A stretch of 11,632 nt of DNA, taken from an uncultured Deinococcales bacterium. GTDB taxonomy: Bacteria; Deinococcota; Deinococci; Deinococcales; JAAFIG01. Of the stretch, positions 1,949 to 10,576 are shown piece by piece (positions within the stretch are counted from its first letter, which is position 1; every line of letters begins with the position of its first letter). The DNA is taken from NCBI GenBank assembly GCA_964244895.1, contig CAXTKV010000173.1, positions 1-11,632 on the forward strand, given 5' to 3'. The notes below the pieces were generated by a model, which did no database searches, was not told the origin of the DNA, and saw only the letters and a program-made list of their open reading frames with translations. Made by a program: the position numbers and the translations under genes.

Positions 1949-2791
1949 GTGATCAAGCTCTTCGGCGACGTATCGGGACTGCGCAGGGACGTTCAAGTGG
2001 GCTCCGATAGGACACCGCTGGTGGTGGCCGTCCACGGCGGTTCGTACACATCGGCTTATTTTGACCTGCCAGGTCACTCTCTATTGGATCGTGCAGCCGT
2101 CAATCACATCCCAATCATCGCTCTTGATCGACCAGGCTATGGCAGCACGCCAATCCTTGCGACGGGCGAGTCCGGGATTTGGGGACAGGCGCGGTATCTT
2201 ACGCACGCATTGAAGGGAGTCTGGACGGACTATGGGGCGGGCACGCGCGGCATTGTTCTCATCGGTCACTCGATTGGCGGTGCCATCGCGGCAGCAATTG
2301 CAAGTGAACCCGACGGTCTTCCACTCCTGGGCGTGGCGGTGTCTGGGGTCGGTTTACGGACGCCAACCGAGCACGGTCCGATGTGGAATGCACTGCCAAA
2401 TCTTGCGCAAGTTGACTTGGCTGCCGAGATCAAGAATAACGTCATGTTCGGTCCAGAGGGGAGCTTTGATCCCGAGATGAAGGCGATGAGCCACCGTGCC
2501 GACGCACCAGCCGTGCGCGCGGAACTCATCGATATTGTTGGAGGCTGGCAGGATCGCGTCAACACGGTGCTCGCAAAGATCACGGTGCCCTTCCATTACC
2601 GTCAAGCCGATACGGACCACCTCTGGATCGTTGATGAGCACGAGGTTCAAGCATTTGCCCGTGCGCTGGCAAACTCGCCGCTCGTGGACGCAGCCATCGT
2701 GCCACATACGGGACACTGCATGGACCTTCACCACGTTGGCAGTGCATTACAGCTACAGCATCTCGGGTTTGCGATGCAGTGTGCCAGTTAG
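1949..2791 (+). CDS. Alpha/beta-fold hydrolase (esterase/thioesterase-like, substrate unknown)
   Basis: VAVHGG oxyanion loop, ALDRPGYG, GHSIGG nucleophile elbow, and a C-terminal His in HTGHCMD. SD GGAGG at 1937-1941 precedes the GTG start. Confidence 0.92.
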   Translation: MIKLFGDVSGLRRDVQVGSDRTPLVVAVHGGSYTSAYFDLPGHSLLDRAAVNHIPIIALDRPGYGSTPILATGESGIWGQARYLTHALKGVWTDYGAGTRGIVLIGHSIGGAIAAAIASEPDGLPLLGVAVSGVGLRTPTEHGPMWNALPNLAQVDLAAEIKNNVMFGPEGSFDPEMKAMSHRADAPAVRAELIDIVGGWQDRVNTVLAKITVPFHYRQADTDHLWIVDEHEVQAFARALANSPLVDAAIVPHTGHCMDLHHVGSALQLQHLGFAMQCAS

Positions 2792-3140: not shown

Positions 3141-3488
3141 CGGGGTTGCCTAGTCGTGATCCAGGCTCGGGATTTGGCCTTGCGGTTCGCAGGCAGTCTG
3201 CGCGATCGGCAACCGAAGGTACTTGTGCCCTGGCTGCTTGCGGCTCAAACCAGCGGGATTCCCGCGTTGAAGGAGTTCGCGGTGGGGCTCGAGCGTGAGA
3301 TCGCGGCGATCAAGGCGGCGTTCGCGCTGGAATGGTCGAACGGGCAGGTGGAGGGCGTGGTGAACTGGATCCAGCTCATCAAGCGGCAGATGTTCGGAAG
3401 ATCAGGGTTCGAACTTTTGAGACGGAGGGTGTTACTAGCCGCGTGGCGACCTCGTGCATCAAACTTCGGTCAGAGCCGGTTCGCTTGA
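3135..3488 (+). pseudogene. ISL3-family transposase C-terminal remnant with terminal inverted repeat ending at 3477
   Basis: WSNGQVEGVVNWIQLIKRQMFGRSGFELLRRRVLLAA aligns with the C-terminus of the intact ISL3 transposase. The expected stop after LLAA is TGG. TGCATCAAACTTCGGTCAGAGCC (3455-3477) resembles the ISL3 end TGCACGCGAACTGCGGGAGAGCC. Confidence 0.9.
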
Positions 3489-3684
3489 CGGCCCCGCGGA
3501 ACTCCGCCTCGAGTGCGTGGCGGTGCGCTCGGCCAACGCTCGCGTCCTCGAGGTCGCGCTCGCGCAACACGGCGTGAACCGGGGCGAGCCTGGCTCGAAC
3601 CTTATCCTGCGCCACGGCGGCGGTTGACTGGCGGGGCGCGGTCGGCGGTGCCGCAAGGGTGGCGGTGCCGTCTGGCACGTTCAA
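3478..3684 (-). pseudogene. Possible truncated fifth gene of the Ubl operon, function unknown
   Basis: TTG at 3684 overlaps the E1 stop (TTGA), with an alternative GTG at 3678. The frame stays open for 69 codons with coding-like usage until it meets the ISL3 end at 3477. No recognisable motif. Confidence 0.4.
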
Positions 3685-5219
3685 CCCATTCCCCAACGGC
3701 CCCGAAACGCCTTGACGAACAGTGGGTCGCCGCAACGGCAGGATCGCGACTTGCGGCGTGGCTCGCGATCAAGACGGATCAGGTCGAAGGCATCCGCGAC
3801 CAGCACGTTCGAAGGCGCTCGCAGCGGGGCGTTCGCGAAGTGCCTGGCTTTGACGAGCTCGGCCACCATGAGCACCCCTGGCAGGAATGAAACGAAACCG
3901 ACCGTCGGCGTTGGCAGGTCCGGGCGCACGATCGCCTCCGAGCAGGCCACGCGCCGCGCTTCGGCGAAGGGCTTGCCGATCAGTTGCGCTGTGCGCTCCT
4001 CGGCCAGCACAGCGCGCCCGCGCGTGTGCATCGCCTCGGCGACCTCCTCGTCGAACACCCTCCGGCCCGAGAGCAGCTCGAGGGCCACGTCCTCGCCGAC
4101 GCCGAACTGCCGGACGACGTCGGATAGATCTGAGGTCGGCTCTGCGGGCTCAGGGTACAAACAGGCCGCGCATGGTCCCTCCTCGAAGCGGTGTTTGGAG
4201 ACCATGAAACCGCTGCCGCTCGTCCCGCCGTTGATCAGCTCGCGCGGCAGGGCGAACTGGAGGGCACGCCGGGATGCGCCCGAATCCGAGCCGCACAGCG
4301 CGATCTCGAAGGGGTCGTCGCGGCGGGGCCAGTCCTCGAACCTCACCGCCGACGCATGCACCTTGAGCGTCGGCGCGAGTGTGTTGAGAACGCTGCCCAC
4401 CTGCTCGACCTTGAGGCGGTGGACGTCGGCGCGGGCCGAGACGAAATGTCGCTCGACGTTCGAGTCGGAGAGAACGTCCGGATCGATGAGGTGCAGGCAC
4501 CCCCTGGGTCGCGGCAGGAGCGCGAGCGCGTAGGCCACCGCCGCCCCAATCGCGCCGAGCCCGAGGATCGGGACTTCGCCCAGGTCGAGTCCGGGCAGAC
4601 TGGGGTTCTGGTCGCGACCGTCGGAGTAATCGAAGGCCGACAGCCACGCCCCATCGGGCGGCCCAGGAAGCGCGTCGGGCCTGGGCACGAGGGGCCGGAA
4701 CAGCTCGGCGGCGACGAGGGCCGCGCCCCAGCCCGCGGCGAGCAGCGGCCCAAGGGGGTTGGGATCGTCCGGAGCACCGACGGCGGGCTCGAGGCCGGCA
4801 TAGGCTCGCCAGCGGTCGCTGGCGAGATGGATGACCCGTCCAGCCTCCACCTCTGCCCCACCGATCGACAGCGCGACATCGTAACCGTCACGGCGCGCTA
4901 CCGTTCCGTACTCGCCCTTGAAGCCTACCGGTGCGAGCGCCGATAACGAGGCTCCGACCGCCTCTCCGAGCAGTCGGCCCGGCTCGACCAGCGGCAGCCC
5001 CTTGCGGGCGGGAACCGGCGGGGCGAGGACGTCGAGCTGGGGGCAATAGCGAAAAAGCCGGGCGAGGACGTTCGTGCTGGCGGCGAGCATCACCTGACCG
5101 GCGAGCGAGGTCGCCCAGGCCGCTGAGACGCCGACTGCCACCCGCATTCCGCCGGGGCGGCCCTGGGTGGCCCCGAGGCTCTCGGCGAAGAGGTAGTTGC
5201 GGGACGGTTCGTCGTTCAC
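3681..5219 (-). CDS. Ubiquitin-activating E1 / ThiF-family adenylyltransferase (type II BilD-like: degenerate N-terminal adenylation-like domain, active domain, Cys domain)
   Basis: GLGAIG Rossmann motif, DPDVLSDSNVERH, RLKVE, GSDSGASR, zinc ligands GPCAAC and C-terminal SCRC, and a candidate catalytic Cys in RVACSEA. About 210 extra N-terminal residues. GTG start overlaps the JAB stop (GTGA, 5216-5219). Confidence 0.92.
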   Translation of the reverse strand: MNDEPSRNYLFAESLGATQGRPGGMRVAVGVSAAWATSLAGQVMLAASTNVLARLFRYCPQLDVLAPPVPARKGLPLVEPGRLLGEAVGASLSALAPVGFKGEYGTVARRDGYDVALSIGGAEVEAGRVIHLASDRWRAYAGLEPAVGAPDDPNPLGPLLAAGWGAALVAAELFRPLVPRPDALPGPPDGAWLSAFDYSDGRDQNPSLPGLDLGEVPILGLGAIGAAVAYALALLPRPRGCLHLIDPDVLSDSNVERHFVSARADVHRLKVEQVGSVLNTLAPTLKVHASAVRFEDWPRRDDPFEIALCGSDSGASRRALQFALPRELINGGTSGSGFMVSKHRFEEGPCAACLYPEPAEPTSDLSDVVRQFGVGEDVALELLSGRRVFDEEVAEAMHTRGRAVLAEERTAQLIGKPFAEARRVACSEAIVRPDLPTPTVGFVSFLPGVLMVAELVKARHFANAPLRAPSNVLVADAFDLIRLDREPRRKSRSCRCGDPLFVKAFRGRWGMG

Positions 5220-5803
5220 GGTAGCGCATCCTTTGCCTGAATCTCGAGGCGATGCGCCCGAACTTCGAGGCGCGCTCGGCGCTCAGCCCGATCCCACTCG
5301 CGCCAGCCGCCGCCCGTCAGCTCGAACGCGGCCCACTCGTCGGGGCCGTAGTCGCGGTCGGCGTAGTTGGGCACCACGATCGAGAGGAAGCCGGGGTCTC
5401 CGCAGATCGCCCCGGCGTCGTCGGTCTCGGAGTGAAATGCGTCGCGGGGGTGGCTGTGTACCTGGGCCAGCAGGTACTCGCCGCGCTCGGCGACAGCCTG
5501 GTTGAGGCGCTCCAACACCCCCTCGTCGCTGATTTCGACCCAGCCGAAGTTGTTGCGCGTACGTGGCAGGTAGAGGGTGGTGACGAGGCCCACGCCCTCA
5601 GCGGAGACGAGGCCGCCCCAGAAGGCCCCCTGCTCGCGCCGCCGCCGGCCCGCCTCGCGCAGGTGGGCGAGCGTCTCGAGGTGAACGGTTTGCGGCAGCA
5701 CCAGGTGCTCAAGCCGCTCCGGTCTGCGCCGCACCGAAAGGACGCGCACGACCGGCTCGGGCTCCGGGGCGCGGCGGCGGGCGAGCCGCTGGCGCAGGCT
5801 CAT
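5216..5803 (-). CDS. JAB/JAMM (MPN+) metallo-isopeptidase, Ubl-processing/deubiquitinase (BilC-like)
   Basis: Catalytic Glu in REQGAFWGG and JAMM motif AQVHSHPRDAFHSETDD (HxH-x-S-xx-D). ATG at 5803 overlaps the E2 stop (ATGA, 5800-5803) and is preferred over the track's 5875 start. Confidence 0.92.
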   Translation of the reverse strand: MSLRQRLARRRAPEPEPVVRVLSVRRRPERLEHLVLPQTVHLETLAHLREAGRRRREQGAFWGGLVSAEGVGLVTTLYLPRTRNNFGWVEISDEGVLERLNQAVAERGEYLLAQVHSHPRDAFHSETDDAGAICGDPGFLSIVVPNYADRDYGPDEWAAFELTGGGWREWDRAERRARLEVRAHRLEIQAKDALP

Positions 5804-6258
5804 CGGTTGTACCCCGCGTACTCCGGCGCATTCAGGCCCACCGCCACGGCGGTCAGCGCGTGCTCGAGTTGCCACTCGTCCGGCGTCGGGCGCGGGTGTC
5901 CGTGCGTCTGCCAGGCGAGGAACGGCGGGGCGCAGACGAAGGGCGGCATGTTGCCCGAGCGGAAGATCGACTGCGTCCAGCCCTGCCCGTCGAAGCGCTG
6001 GTAGTCGCGCGGCCAGGCCAAAGGCGAGGGGGTTTCCGTACTGGGGTCGAGAAATTCCGCGTCGGGCGCGCGCTCCGGGTAGCCGGTGCAGTCGAGACGC
6101 AAAAGGTAGTGGTCGGACACCTCACTTCGTTCACGGGCCAGCATCCAGGCCAAGACCAGGTGGCCCCGGCGCTCGATCCGGCTGACCCGCAGGTGGCCTG
6201 GATCCGGAAGCTGGGCGAGGTCGCGCTCGATGAAGTCCTCGGACAGCACGGCAAGCAT
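5800..6258 (-). CDS. Bacterial E2-like ubiquitin-conjugating enzyme (BilB-like), copy a
   Basis: UBC-like YLLRLDCTGYPERAPDAEFLDP, WP motif, candidate catalytic Cys in PFVCAPPF, then HGH...W. It sits between Ubl and JAB. SD GGAGG lies 7 nt upstream. Confidence 0.85.
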   Translation of the reverse strand: MLAVLSEDFIERDLAQLPDPGHLRVSRIERRGHLVLAWMLARERSEVSDHYLLRLDCTGYPERAPDAEFLDPSTETPSPLAWPRDYQRFDGQGWTQSIFRSGNMPPFVCAPPFLAWQTHGHPRPTPDEWQLEHALTAVAVGLNAPEYAGYNR

Positions 6259-6262
6259 GGCG

Positions 6263-6568
6263 TTACCTCCAGCCAGCGGCGTACTGCTTCACCAGACGCA
6301 TCTCGAGTTTGCGGGGGCGGCTCGGCTCACGCTCGGCCACCGCGCCCACTGCGTCCTCGGGCCGCAGCACCTCGCCGCGGTACATCAGATCCCAGCGGTC
6401 GCCGGGCTGCTCGACCACCCCTGCCGCTTGGAGCACCTGACGGATGACGGCGGCGATCTTGGCGGCGGGCTCGACCTCGAGTTCGACCTTGCCGCCGCCC
6501 TGGACGTGCACCTCGAGGGTGTAGGTGGCGGGTCGGGGGGACGGCTTCGTGTGTCCTGCGGTATCCAT
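6263..6568 (-). CDS. Ubiquitin-like beta-grasp protein (single-domain, BilA-like) with C-terminal AAG-WR tail
   Basis: Ubiquitin-fold pattern YTLEVHVQGGGKVELEVEPAAKIAAVIRQVL...WDLMYRGEVLRPEDAV...LEMRLV, comparable to ubiquitin LEVEP and LIFAGKQL. Gly lies two residues from the end. First gene of the E2-JAB-E1 operon; SD GGAGG at 6575-6579 (minus strand). Confidence 0.87.
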   Translation of the reverse strand: MDTAGHTKPSPRPATYTLEVHVQGGGKVELEVEPAAKIAAVIRQVLQAAGVVEQPGDRWDLMYRGEVLRPEDAVGAVAEREPSRPRKLEMRLVKQYAAGWR

Positions 6569-6587
6569 AATCTACCTCCGGGTGTCA

Positions 6588-6693
6588 CTTGCCAGAAACG
6601 TCAAGAGAATTATACATTGAATTGCCATTCCCGTCAAGTATGAAGGGCCGTAGTGGCAATAGCCGTGGCAAAATTCCTTGCCGCTGCGGTAAG
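6588..6693. promoter_or_regulatory. Putative operator array for the XRE repressor
   Basis: TTGCCA-N4-CGTCAAG occurs twice (6589-6605 and 6622-6638, both pseudo-palindromic). Related palindrome CTTGCCGCTGCGGTAAG at 6677-6693, and GTGGCAA half-sites at 6653 and 6665. Confidence 0.65.
6609..6637 (-). promoter_or_regulatory. Sigma70-type promoter of the Ubl-E2-JAB-E1 operon
   Basis: Minus strand reads TTGACG (6637-6632), 17 bp, TATAAT (6614-6609), about 40 nt upstream of the Ubl ATG, in an AT-rich island. Confidence 0.85.
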
Positions 6694-6728
6694 GTGGAGT
6701 CGATCCAAGACGGATCAAGGAGGACACC

Positions 6729-7145
6729 ATGCCGCAGGCTCCGCCCCGCTCGACCGCCCCGCCGACCGCCCAAAGCGGCGAGAAAACCCCAGACCTGTAC
6801 ATGCAGATCGGTCAGCGCCTCAAGCGCGCCCGCGAGGCCAAACGCCTCAGCCAGGACGAACTGGGCGCCTTGGTGGGCGAGGGCGCGATCGCCATCTCGC
6901 GCTGGGAAACGGCCAGCCGGAAGCCCAACGTCGAGGACCTCGCCAAGTTGGCCGCAGCGCTCGACCAGAGCATCCTCTACTTCGTGGAGGAGGTCATCCC
7001 GCAGGATAATTTTGTCGCCCGACTCAACCGTCTCGCCGGAGAACTCGACGAGACCGACCGCGAGGATCTGCTGGCCCTCGCCCGGTTCAAACACCAGCGC
7101 TACGTAGAGCGCCGACTCCAGGCCGAAGAGGAAAAGAAGGTTTGA
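6729..7145 (+). CDS. XRE/Cro-family HTH transcriptional repressor (ImmR/CapH/DdrO-like role)
   Basis: IGQRLKRAREAKRLSQDELGALVG...AISRWETASRKPNVEDLAKLAAALD, followed by a C-terminal helical segment (LDETDREDLLALARF). SD AGGAGG at 6718-6723. Confidence 0.95.
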   Translation: MPQAPPRSTAPPTAQSGEKTPDLYMQIGQRLKRAREAKRLSQDELGALVGEGAIAISRWETASRKPNVEDLAKLAAALDQSILYFVEEVIPQDNFVARLNRLAGELDETDREDLLALARFKHQRYVERRLQAEEEKKV

Positions 7146-7148
7146 GCC

Positions 7149-7856
7149 ATGGCCGAGCGCCAGACCTTCCTCGACATGAACCGTCTGGCGCTCGCGCTTC
7201 TCCGCGAGCACGGCGTCGCCGAGCCGCCGGTCAACATCTACCGGATCATCGAAGAGCGGAAAATCGAGTTGTTCTTTTGGCCGTTGACGCCCAAGCTCTC
7301 AGGCTTCTACGAGCACTGCCCGATCACGGGAAAAAGCATCACCATCAACCTCCGCGACGACCAGCGCAAGCAGCGCTTCACCGCCGGTCACGAGCTTAAA
7401 CACGCGATCTGCGAACCCGATAAGGATCACGCCGCGCTCGAGCAGGGCAAACTCCGTCAAGTCGAGCGCATGGCGAACGCGTTTTCGGCCCGACTCCTGC
7501 TGCCTGAAGCGATGGTCAGACGCGTGATGCGGTCGATGAGAGCAGAGGTGTGCGTGGGACTCTTGGCCGACGTCTTCGGGGTGCACACCAACGTGGCGGT
7601 CTTCAGGCTGCACAACCTCGGGATGATCGGTTCGGGCGAGCGCGATCGCATCCTGGCCGATCCCGCCCTGGACCACGAACGGTACACGCGCTTCCGGCAG
7701 GACGGCCTGCCTGGGCCTTCCAGCGGATTTACCGCCGTTGACCGGCTTTTGACTGGCCCGGCGCGCGGTTCGGGGCGCACCTGCCCCCACTGCACCAGCC
7801 CATGGGTCGAAGCCCGCGCAGCCGTCTGCTGGGCGTGCGGGCGACACCCCGTGTGA
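7149..7856 (+). CDS. ImmA/IrrE-family (peptidase M78) metallo-endopeptidase with C-terminal zinc ribbon
   Basis: PPVNI, RFTAGHELKH (HExxH), third ligand in VERMANAFSARLLLP, HTH-like LADVFGV....AVFRL, and C-terminal CPHC...CWAC. Starts 3 nt after the HTH stop. Confidence 0.93.
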   Translation: MAERQTFLDMNRLALALLREHGVAEPPVNIYRIIEERKIELFFWPLTPKLSGFYEHCPITGKSITINLRDDQRKQRFTAGHELKHAICEPDKDHAALEQGKLRQVERMANAFSARLLLPEAMVRRVMRSMRAEVCVGLLADVFGVHTNVAVFRLHNLGMIGSGERDRILADPALDHERYTRFRQDGLPGPSSGFTAVDRLLTGPARGSGRTCPHCTSPWVEARAAVCWACGRHPV

Positions 7857-7896: not shown

Positions 7897-8355
7897 TCAG
7901 CCTGAGCGGTTGTAGCCCGAGTATTCCGGGCGGTTGATGCCGGTGGCGACCGCCGTCACCGCCTGCTCCAGGGTCCACTCCGCAGGGGTTGGGAACGCGT
8001 GCCCGCGCTCCCGCCAGGCGAGGAACGGCGGCGCACACACGAACGGAGGGAAGGCATCCGACCGGAAGATCGAACTGGCTCCGGACGGCAGGCGGTAGTC
8101 GCGCGGCCACCAGTTCGGGTCGTCCTGAAGCGTGACGGGGTTGAGAAAGCGCGCATCGGGCGGACGCTCCGGATACGAGCCGAGTTCCAGCCAAAGAAGG
8201 AATCGATCCGAACGCCGTTGGGCCGCGCCCCCGAGCATCCAGACGGCCACCGCGTCCCCTCGGCGCTCCACCCGCTCGAGGCGGAGGCCTGCCGCCAGTT
8301 CTAAGAGGTGTGTCACCTCGTTGTCCAGCAACTCGAACTTGAGCTGGCCTAGCAC
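7897..8355 (-). CDS. Bacterial E2-like conjugating enzyme, copy b (paralogue of 5800-6258)
   Basis: Roughly half identical to copy a by manual alignment, including ERRG, YPER.PDA.FL.P, WPRDY, SIFRS, PPFVCAPPFLAW and PEY.GYNR. GTG at 8355 gives 152 aa, the same length as copy a. The frame is open upstream to ATG 8373 and TTG 8466. Confidence 0.85.
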   Translation of the reverse strand: MLGQLKFELLDNEVTHLLELAAGLRLERVERRGDAVAVWMLGGAAQRRSDRFLLWLELGSYPERPPDARFLNPVTLQDDPNWWPRDYRLPSGASSIFRSDAFPPFVCAPPFLAWRERGHAFPTPAEWTLEQAVTAVATGINRPEYSGYNRSG

Positions 8356-8547
8356 CCGTGTCCACCCCTTCATCACCCTACACACATGCCAGCCATAAGT
8401 GGTGTTCGGACGCACGCGGCATAGGTGGATGCCACCCCCCACGATTATGGAATGAAACTCATCCAATTTTGGAAGGGGATCGGATCACGAATCTAGACGG
8501 ATTCGGAATTTTGTGAGAAACTACGGGGCAGGGCCGGGGAGGGTTTC

Positions 8548-8715
8548 GTGAGAGCGCTCACTTCGACACGTCCGATGACCTGCTGCGGGGGCGGCAAACC
8601 TGCCCGAATCCCGTGCGACAGGGGTCGTGAACCAGAGGCAGACGCGTGCCTGCCGGGCGTACGTTTGCCGAGCACAGAGCTTTTCGCCTCCCTCGCGGGG
8701 CATGGGGTTGGCTGA
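8548..8715 (+). CDS. Small 55-aa ORF, possible degenerate XRE-HTH remnant
   Basis: GGGAGG SD, GTG start, and TGATG overlap with the next gene. Segment RLPSTELFASLA matches RKPNVEDLAKLA of the HTH at 6/12 positions. Confidence 0.3.
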   Translation: MRALTSTRPMTCCGGGKPARIPCDRGREPEADACLPGVRLPSTELFASLAGHGVG

Positions 8716-9667: not shown

Positions 9668-10576
9668 ATGGATCTGTTGACGAACGCGATTGAATCAATC
9701 CAGGTCGGCGTGGGGACTTCCAGGACGGCTCGCGACCGCGCCTCCTCTCGGCGGTGCGCAACCTTCACGCCGGTATCCTTCTCCTGTACAAGGAGGCGCT
9801 CAGCCGAATGTCGCCCGCGGGGAACGGCGCGAGGTTCTGATCAAGGCGCGCACGAAGTGGGTGCGAGGGGCGAGCGGACGGCTCGAGTGCGTGGCGGATG
9901 GCCGGAACACGGTGGACATCCAGCAGATCAGGGCGCACTTCAAGAACCTGGGCGTGGGACGGACTGGCAGCGCTTCGACCGGATCACAGCCGTCAGGAAT
10001 GAGGTGGGACACTACTTCCCGGCGAACCCCAAGGCGATTACTGGGGTCGTCGCAGACGCCCTGACGATCATCCGGTCCTTCATCGCCGACGAACTCAACG
10101 ACGAGCCCCGAACACTGCTCGGCCAGGCGACCTGGTCCGCCATGCTCCAGGCGCAAGAGGTGTATAACGCCGAGAAGCTGGTCTGCAACGAGAGCTTCGT
10201 TAGCGTCAGCGAGCCATCGGAGGAGTTCTTGGACGCGGCGCGGTCGCTCGCGTGCCTGTCCTGCGGATCCGACCTGCTCGAGCTTCACGAGGCCACGCGA
10301 TCCCGCGAGGACTGGCGGCTGCGCTGCCGGGCCTGCGACGCAGAGGCCTGGGGCGCAGAGGTCTACGAGTCGGTCCAGAACGGCGGAGCGGTGCCGTACG
10401 TCGCCTACCCGGAATGCGGCACGGACGCATACGTGATGGAAGAGCACCGGTGCCTGTACTGCGGTCACGAGGCCGAACACGAGTGCAAGATGTGCGTTGC
10501 CGGGATACCCGCCGAGGAACTCGACCCCTCGCCGTACTGCGGGCACTACGCCTACATCATGGCCAAGGACGACTGA
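9668..10576 (+). pseudogene. Frameshifted HEPN-like (RNxxxH) protein with C-terminal zinc ribbons
   Basis: A coherent protein (MDLLTNAIESIQVGV/DFQDGSRPRLLSAVRNLHAGILLLYKEALSRMSP/EVLIKA...NTVDIQQIRAHFKNLGV/TDWQRFDRITAVRNEVGHY) is recovered only with frame changes near 9713, 9829 and 9957. CxxC motifs follow, two of them degraded (YPEC, CGHY). Confidence 0.7.

Follow-up and report, generated by a model that had tools for sequence, protein, structure and literature searches.

In Bil immunity, a JAB peptidase trims the tail of the ubiquitin-like protein (Ubl) to its glycine, an E1 activates the Ubl and an E2 conjugates it without an E3. Type II Bil was defined by Chambers et al. (bioRxiv 10.1101/2023.09.26.559546); in the accessible part of that report, the BilABCD operon of Ensifer aridi TW10 (CEHH/6C operon; PDB 8TYZ/8TZ0) has the gene order Ubl-E2-JAB-E1, the Ubl carries a conserved Gly followed by up to nine residues, Cys138 and His151 are given as the conserved catalytic residues of the E2, the loop before the catalytic Cys is proposed as the target picker, and CapH/CapP lies beside 25 of 162 operons. 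The Type I Bil system of Collimonas sp. OK412 (Hoer et al., bioRxiv 10.1101/2023.09.04.556158) has four genes in the same order, with one E2 and a Ubl of two beta-grasp domains; as far as the accessible text goes, Type I Bil tags the phage central tail fibre, and in OK412 the E2 Cys is needed for defence and conjugation proceeds without an E3. CapH/CapP (bioRxiv 10.1101/2022.04.27.489752, accessible part) and ImmR/ImmA-type pairs consist of an XRE repressor and an HExxH peptidase of the Peptidase_M78 type, encoded divergently from a defence operon. Divergent HTH and ImmA genes are also found in the Bil loci of Ralstonia pickettii pRp12D0 and Sinorhizobium fredii GR64, with one E2 and one peptidase each.

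The window (the whole stretch of DNA analysed) is an entire contig of 11,632 bp from a 5.1 Mb assembly of 328 contigs (91% complete), probably of a member of the Deinococcota. It holds a Bil locus (Table 1) flanked by an ISL3 transposase and a Tn3 fragment. The Bil operon itself is of an already known anti-phage type, but two genes here have no counterpart in the E. aridi Type II locus: an additional E2 gene and an additional peptidase gene whose product lacks the zinc ligands.

Table 1. Features of the Bil locus, with positions in the window.
Feature	Position	Strand	Basis or remark
E1 (BilD), 512 aa	3681..5219	-	BilD E 1e-17; family profile to 8TYZ_A E 5.9e-38
JAB peptidase (BilC)	5216..5803	-	Prok-JAB E 2.8e-6; BilC E 2.7e-16
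E2a (BilB), 152 aa, Cys109/His121	5800..6258	-	Pfam DUF7665 E 7e-7; PADLOC BilB E 1.3e-8
Ubl (BilA), one predicted beta-grasp domain	6263..6568	-	DUF2604/ubiquitin matches weak, below cut-off; operon position; sequence
Divergent promoter region of the operon	6569..6728	.	promoter-like site scan
XRE HTH repressor, CapH/ImmR-like	6729..7145	+	HTH_3 E 6e-12; capH E 3.5e-11
ImmA/CapP-like zinc peptidase, first copy	7149..7856	+	Peptidase_M78 E 4.5e-15; capP E 2e-17
E2b, second BilB-like E2, 152 aa (158 aa from ATG 8373)	7897..8355	-	Cys107, His119 and Trp127 kept; helix 1 diverged
Spacer between E2b and second peptidase copy, 359 bp	8356..8714	.	no remnant of Ubl or HTH recognised; promoter-like sites all weak
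Second ImmA/IrrE-type peptidase copy, 236 aa	8715..9425	+	divergent from E2b; zinc ligands lost; ribbon kept

The ISL3-family element (31-1836) has an open frame for a 568-aa transposase, 46-nt terminal inverted repeats (98% matched) and a GC content of 55% (genome, 63%). An alpha/beta hydrolase gene of low GC3 (0.63) at 1949-2791 (+) lies between ISL3 sequences and had no other copy in the genome by tblastn, and a short ORF at 3379-3735 (-) overlaps the E1 end; as it is not rich in Cys or His, it is unlikely to be the fifth gene that follows E1 in other Type II loci. Rfam gave 0 matches.

The host operon and its regulator pair

By its genes and their order, the operon beside E2b is a diverged BilABCD operon of a Type II-like kind, accompanied by a CapH/CapP-like pair of HTH and ImmA-type genes. 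The Ubl, E2, JAB and E1 genes lie on one strand in the order seen in E. aridi and OK412, the JAB start overlapping the E2a stop (ATGA). Like E. aridi BilD, the E1 has an N-terminal domain, an adenylation domain, a Cys insertion and four zinc cysteines; a profile of six E1s matched the E. aridi protein over positions 74-516. Cys350, Cys353, Cys426, Cys494 and Cys496 were invariant in 6/6 close E1s, with the catalytic and zinc cysteines in register with BilD (Cys426 is matched to the region of the catalytic Cys in 8TYZ, and the four zinc Cys are kept). Identity to rhizobial BilD was about 28%, and the E1 tree placed this E1 family in a clade of its own, without resolution of the order relative to rhizobial BilD. 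The Ubl ends in AAG-WR (Gly and a two-residue tail), as expected of Type II, and has a single predicted domain as in E. aridi, in contrast to the two of OK412. The full CEHH motif (Cys, Glu+6, His+8, His+13) was found in neither E2: both have only the Cys and His+12, with Ala at +6 and Gln or Arg at +8, and thus differ from the E. aridi CEHH protein in lacking Glu144 and His146. Because the Glu and the first His are absent from both, the locus is called Type II-like and not a plain member. NGR234 BilB, which is nearly the same protein as 8TYZ_C, shares no more than about 17% identity with the window E2s; the E2s of pRp12D0 and GR64, 29-31% identical to E2b, have the Cys, His+12 and Trp+20 spacing of the window E2s.

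In the divergent promoter region, an 11-of-12 sigma-70-like site (6637-6609) is directed toward the Ubl gene and a 9-of-12 site toward the HTH gene. The divergent repressor and peptidase genes are arranged as in the described pairs, and the first peptidase copy has its HExxH motif (GHELKH) and third ligand intact. The capP model matched only residues 11-156 of this product, the tail being a short CxxC..CxxC zinc ribbon; both window copies (235-236 aa) end in such a ribbon, whereas described CapP has a C-terminal GAF domain (10.1101/2022.04.27.489752, accessible part). An HTH and zinc-ribbon ImmA pair was also seen in an integrated element with an integrase and a primase-like gene (L025 9201-10305; G061:C7), with no Bil genes detected nearby; its HTH and peptidase were 52% and 34% identical to those of the window. 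The regulator pair of the window may come from such elements. Separately, an ImmA-type frame of roughly 410 codons was observed beside the Bil operon in two kin loci, L017 (6876-8105) and L018 (10577-11818), the L018 frame also matching HTH (a fused regulator); the Bil locus of L017 (9274-11153; G097:C14) is possibly broken, since its E1 match stops after the N-terminal half, at a stop codon close to where the contig ends.

The second E2 gene and its product

E2b is a real open reading frame of 152 aa that starts at GTG 8355, with a Shine-Dalgarno-like AAGGGGTGG upstream; an in-frame ATG at 8373 gives the 158-aa form called in NCBI/ENA, and the Logan call is 152 aa. Likeness to E2a (5800-6258) is far above chance (tblastn E 1e-41 in the genome) at 52% identity, in agreement with the original prediction that about half of the residues differ. 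An assembly echo was ruled out as the source of E2b, the best DNA match between the copies being 72% over 176 nt. Of residues 1-15, 2 are identical, and from residue 91 on each block of 14-15 residues has 10-11 identical ones; the 12-residue block PPFVCAPPFLAW is the same in both proteins, and the contrasts ARERSEV/GGAAQRR and QTHGH/RERGH are as had been stated. The equal length, also pointed out beforehand, is correct but arises by chance from differences of +1, -3 and +2 residues that cancel out, and the GYNR taken as a retained C-terminus is present, but E2b continues to GYNRSG. The codon adaptation index (CAI) was 0.70 for E2b, lower than the 0.78 of E2a. Separate transcription, as originally proposed, is suggested by the gene layout; no promoter-like site passed the scan in 8356-8714 (8-of-12 sites only). 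From E2b to the operon, the minus strand showed no terminator-like site, so read-through antisense to the regulator genes is possible; in the gap between the peptidase and E2b, the fold was no better than that of shuffles (z -0.6 and -1.1).

E2b is, by sequence and predicted structure, an intact E2-fold protein of the BilB type. The top VIA rows for a model built from a seven-row alignment (pLDDT 71.6, low around the Cys) were nearly all E2-fold (Z 8-9.4, rmsd about 3 A, 110-124 residues aligned), and BilB 8TYZ_C gave Z 8.1, values of this size being middling. The E2a model (two rows, pLDDT 59.6) was left out of the results. The active site, which had been described as conserved, appears to be so at the level of sequence, with a putative catalytic Cys107 aligned to Cys138 and His119 at +12. 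Cys107 and Trp127 were common to 10/10 distant relatives, and a His at +12 or +13 from the Cys was read by eye in 12/13 rows. The curated BilB, DUF7665 and Metal_CEHH models of PADLOC, Pfam and NCBIfam gave no match to E2b and two to E2a, and E2b alone among 7 family members missed the PADLOC BilB model. Its Atlas features reached 0.96 to DUF7665/Metal_CEHH clusters with a low recognition value (2089), and a profile of the three close E2s matched NGR234 BilB weakly (probability 10.9%). Matches of E2a in a phage collection (E 0.1) and PDB sequence matches to FaeE (E 0.7) were set aside as chance.

Between E2b and E2a, codon positions 1, 2 and 3 were 66, 69 and 43% identical, with dN 0.48 and dS at least 1.02. 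Four-fold sites were saturated (20/50 identical vs 38% expected from composition), so the pairwise dN/dS of 0.47 is an upper bound. Private changes were counted with P0015 as the reference, a further close E2 relative on a 1416-bp contig (51% identical to E2a, 42% to E2b), and amounted to 25 in E2b vs 10 in E2a (p 0.017). Residues 1-60 held 15 of those in E2b, six of them in helix 1, and 2 of those in E2a, which bears out the concentration of divergence in the N-terminal helix that had been noticed at the outset; the pre-Cys loop of E2b differs from that of E2a by a three-residue deletion and many substitutions. In crude neutral simulations (four settings, 400 runs each), the average BLOSUM score of private changes was -0.8 to -0.9 (sd 0.2), compared with +0.21 for 24 private changes of E2b; an open frame with Cys, His and Trp was kept in 1-12/400 runs of neutral decay at 52% identity and in 19-38/400 at 68%. 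The mostly conservative nature of the changes argues against a long-dead gene. At family-conserved columns no depletion of E2b changes was found (Fisher p 0.14-0.56), 10/26 being changed, four of them radically (S6K, L35A, R55W, C58L). E2b looks maintained and was apparently shaped by purifying selection, in tests that a recent loss of function would escape.

The divergence of the N-terminus had been treated as harmless. Helix 1, however, is the main E1-specificity surface of eukaryotic E2s, in which two or three substitutions can switch the E1 (PMC12999496, accessible part); divergence at the main E1 contact argues against charging as much as for new targets. BilD is described as having no domain of the kind bound by helix 1 in eukaryotes, and its E2 binding as closely canonical-like (Chambers et al., 10.1101/2023.09.26.559546, accessible part). 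The assembly, at its 91% completeness, contains only one E1 and one Ubl of the family. Prediction of the E1-E2b complex gave 0.37 vs 0.00 in three controls, and at scores of 0.60 or under the mark was reached by 18/157 solved pairs and by both of the mismatches, out of 215, that passed; the runs agreed in at least 91% of contacts, with a partner pLDDT of at least 86. Since a similar complex has already been solved (8TYZ), the score shows likeness more than binding, and it lends weak support to the view that E2b may be charged by the E1 of the operon.

The second peptidase copy and the spacer

E2b and the zinc-less peptidase, a pairing absent from the original prediction, reproduce the arrangement of E2 and peptidase in the first block, with Ubl, HTH, JAB and E1 missing. 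Along its entire length the second peptidase copy shares 24% identity with the first, which is its only tblastn match in the genome. GHELKH is replaced by GAELLY, and HExxH with its third Glu is lacking: one His is changed to Ala, the other to Tyr, and the Glu is lost, all three being kept in four other aligned rows. The four cysteines of the C-terminal CxxC..CxxC zinc ribbon are retained. The second copy is probably catalytically inactive. With the G061 relative as the third row, 42 private changes were counted in the second copy vs 20 in the first (p 0.007), and the second copies of E2 and peptidase each have 2-2.5 times more private changes than the first copies.

No Ubl or HTH remnant was found in the spacer (8356-8714), where 42/300 (Ubl) and 284/300 (HTH) shuffles scored equally. 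Weak in-register DNA likeness extends beyond both ends of E2b, toward the places of Ubl and JAB (25/60 nt, p 0.006; 10/20 nt, p 0.02; windows chosen after the fact). On the far side of the peptidase, 9670-10576 (+) is a PDC-S64-like candidate defence gene (C-terminal part, PADLOC E 3e-21; Cys-rich tail) with three frameshifts within its first 100 codons; decay therefore occurs here and has spared the E2b and peptidase frames. A shared operator was rejected: the palindrome-like GAWYCWAGACGGAT occurs in the genome at 6702 and 8489 only, a pattern drawn from those two sites, 26/30 shuffles gave an equally good 14-mer, and hairpins were not unusual. Similar palindrome-like words (GATCC-AAGAC-GGATC) at 6700-6718 (before the HTH gene), 8487-8506 (second spacer) and 3766-3783 (3' end of the E1 gene) were not above chance.

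Distribution, origin and possible roles of the second block

The family profile detected one E2 in each of 10 other Bil loci (12-20 kb) and two in the window only. Among 363 other genomes of the phylum it matched four, once each, and in 21 distinct plasmid records (25 rows, four repeated) one place each was matched, by queries that see close copies best; none of the loci in these three counts is a close relative of the window locus. Six E1 relatives were 36-53% identical. No close E1 (E 1e-30) was found in the 363 kin genomes, no close E2 in 60 of the kin genomes searched, and no neighbourhood of a close relative among viral, metagenome and genome contigs. Further members of the E2 family may exist, the word-based protein search being insensitive (E2b alone as query missed E2a). 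With no second E2 in the 10 loci, the 21 plasmid records or the four kin genomes, the two-E2 layout is known from one genome, and its conservation is not supported. In listings and opening lines of abstracts from the accessible literature, which lacks most subscription journals, no Bil locus with two E2s and no inactive ImmA copy in a defence locus was found; the accessible text of Hoer et al. (10.1101/2023.09.04.556158) makes no mention of a second E2 or of E2 duplication.

E2a, E2b and P0015 formed one clade (support 95/98 and 99/98 in two trees). Within it, the pairings E2a+E2b, E2a+P0015 and the third were obtained in 504, 367 and 124 of 995 bootstraps with 13 rows, and in 211, 748 and 41 of 1000 with 8 rows; the two row sets thus give opposite majorities, and the AU test on the rooting of the three close E2s gave p 0.376. 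These trees do not discriminate between a duplication in place and an E2b acquired with a sister cassette. The original prediction of an old duplicate kept under selection is consequently upheld in its age (saturated four-fold sites) and in the selection, but not in the duplicate origin.

Three readings of the second block were weighed. The likeliest, held tentatively, is that E2b is an accessory E2 which the E1 of the operon also charges and whose choice of targets is shifted relative to E2a. At Cys107, E2b would receive the single Ubl of the operon from its single E1 and would transfer it to lysines on the shifted set of targets, while the HTH protein would repress the operon until the active peptidase cleaves it. 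With its remodelled pre-Cys loop and altered helix 1, E2b would act as a second carrier of lower priority, controlled from its own upstream region. It would have arisen in one block with the zinc-less peptidase copy, either when part of the locus was duplicated in tandem or when a sister cassette was captured; the block would later have lost its Ubl and HTH genes and kept the E2b and peptidase frames.

It is possible, though less probable, that E2b and the zinc-less peptidase are instead the remains of a second, related Bil cassette; helix 1 would then have co-evolved with a lost E1, the selection signal would be older, and the present E1 would charge E2b poorly or not at all, an outcome to which we give the same modest credence. 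The E2a-E2b path of about 1.0-1.1 changes per column, like the distance of this E1 to its nearest relative (0.95), is consistent with such remains, as are the position of E2b outside E2a+P0015 in the 8-row tree, the weak DNA likeness that continues on either side of E2b into the expected places of Ubl and JAB (in the post hoc windows given above), and the setting among transposases and beside a frameshifted gene. In the 13-row tree, however, E2a+E2b was the commonest pairing, and no protein-level trace of Ubl or HTH is left in the spacer, whereas the two frames, of 152 and 236 codons, are still open. Loss of three zinc ligands with retention of four ribbon cysteines is also easier to reconcile with prolonged selection for a non-catalytic function than with decay that began recently.

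Least likely of the three, and in our view improbable, is that the two proteins are look-alikes that tune or protect the system and do not add targets. E2b might draw E1~Ubl away from E2a, form pairs with E2a or soak up a phage inhibitor; the peptidase copy might protect the repressor, compete with the active peptidase for the activating signal or bind to that peptidase. The parallel excess of private changes in both second copies, their orientation away from one shared spacer and the clear pseudo-enzyme sequence of the peptidase copy speak for such a role; BilB of E. aridi forms dimers (Chambers et al., 10.1101/2023.09.26.559546, accessible part), so mixed E2a/E2b dimers are conceivable. A pure decoy would have no need of the whole catalytic block that E2b has kept.

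The weight of the observation is limited, since the layout is from one genome and is possibly a relic. If both E2s are charged, a single E1 would be supplying more than one E2 in a bacterium, for which no precedent in Bil was found in the literature covered. A more general proposal, to which we attach rather low confidence, is that one E1 serves two E2s in a eukaryote-like manner, a bolt-on, target-shifted E2 with a pseudo-peptidase regulator widening or re-timing Bil immunity without an E3. In E3-less Bil, the E2 is proposed as the target chooser, and a pair of E2s of 52% identity, with E1, Ubl and JAB in common, would provide a natural paired test of this proposal, which would also show which E2 surfaces set E1 specificity and which set target specificity.
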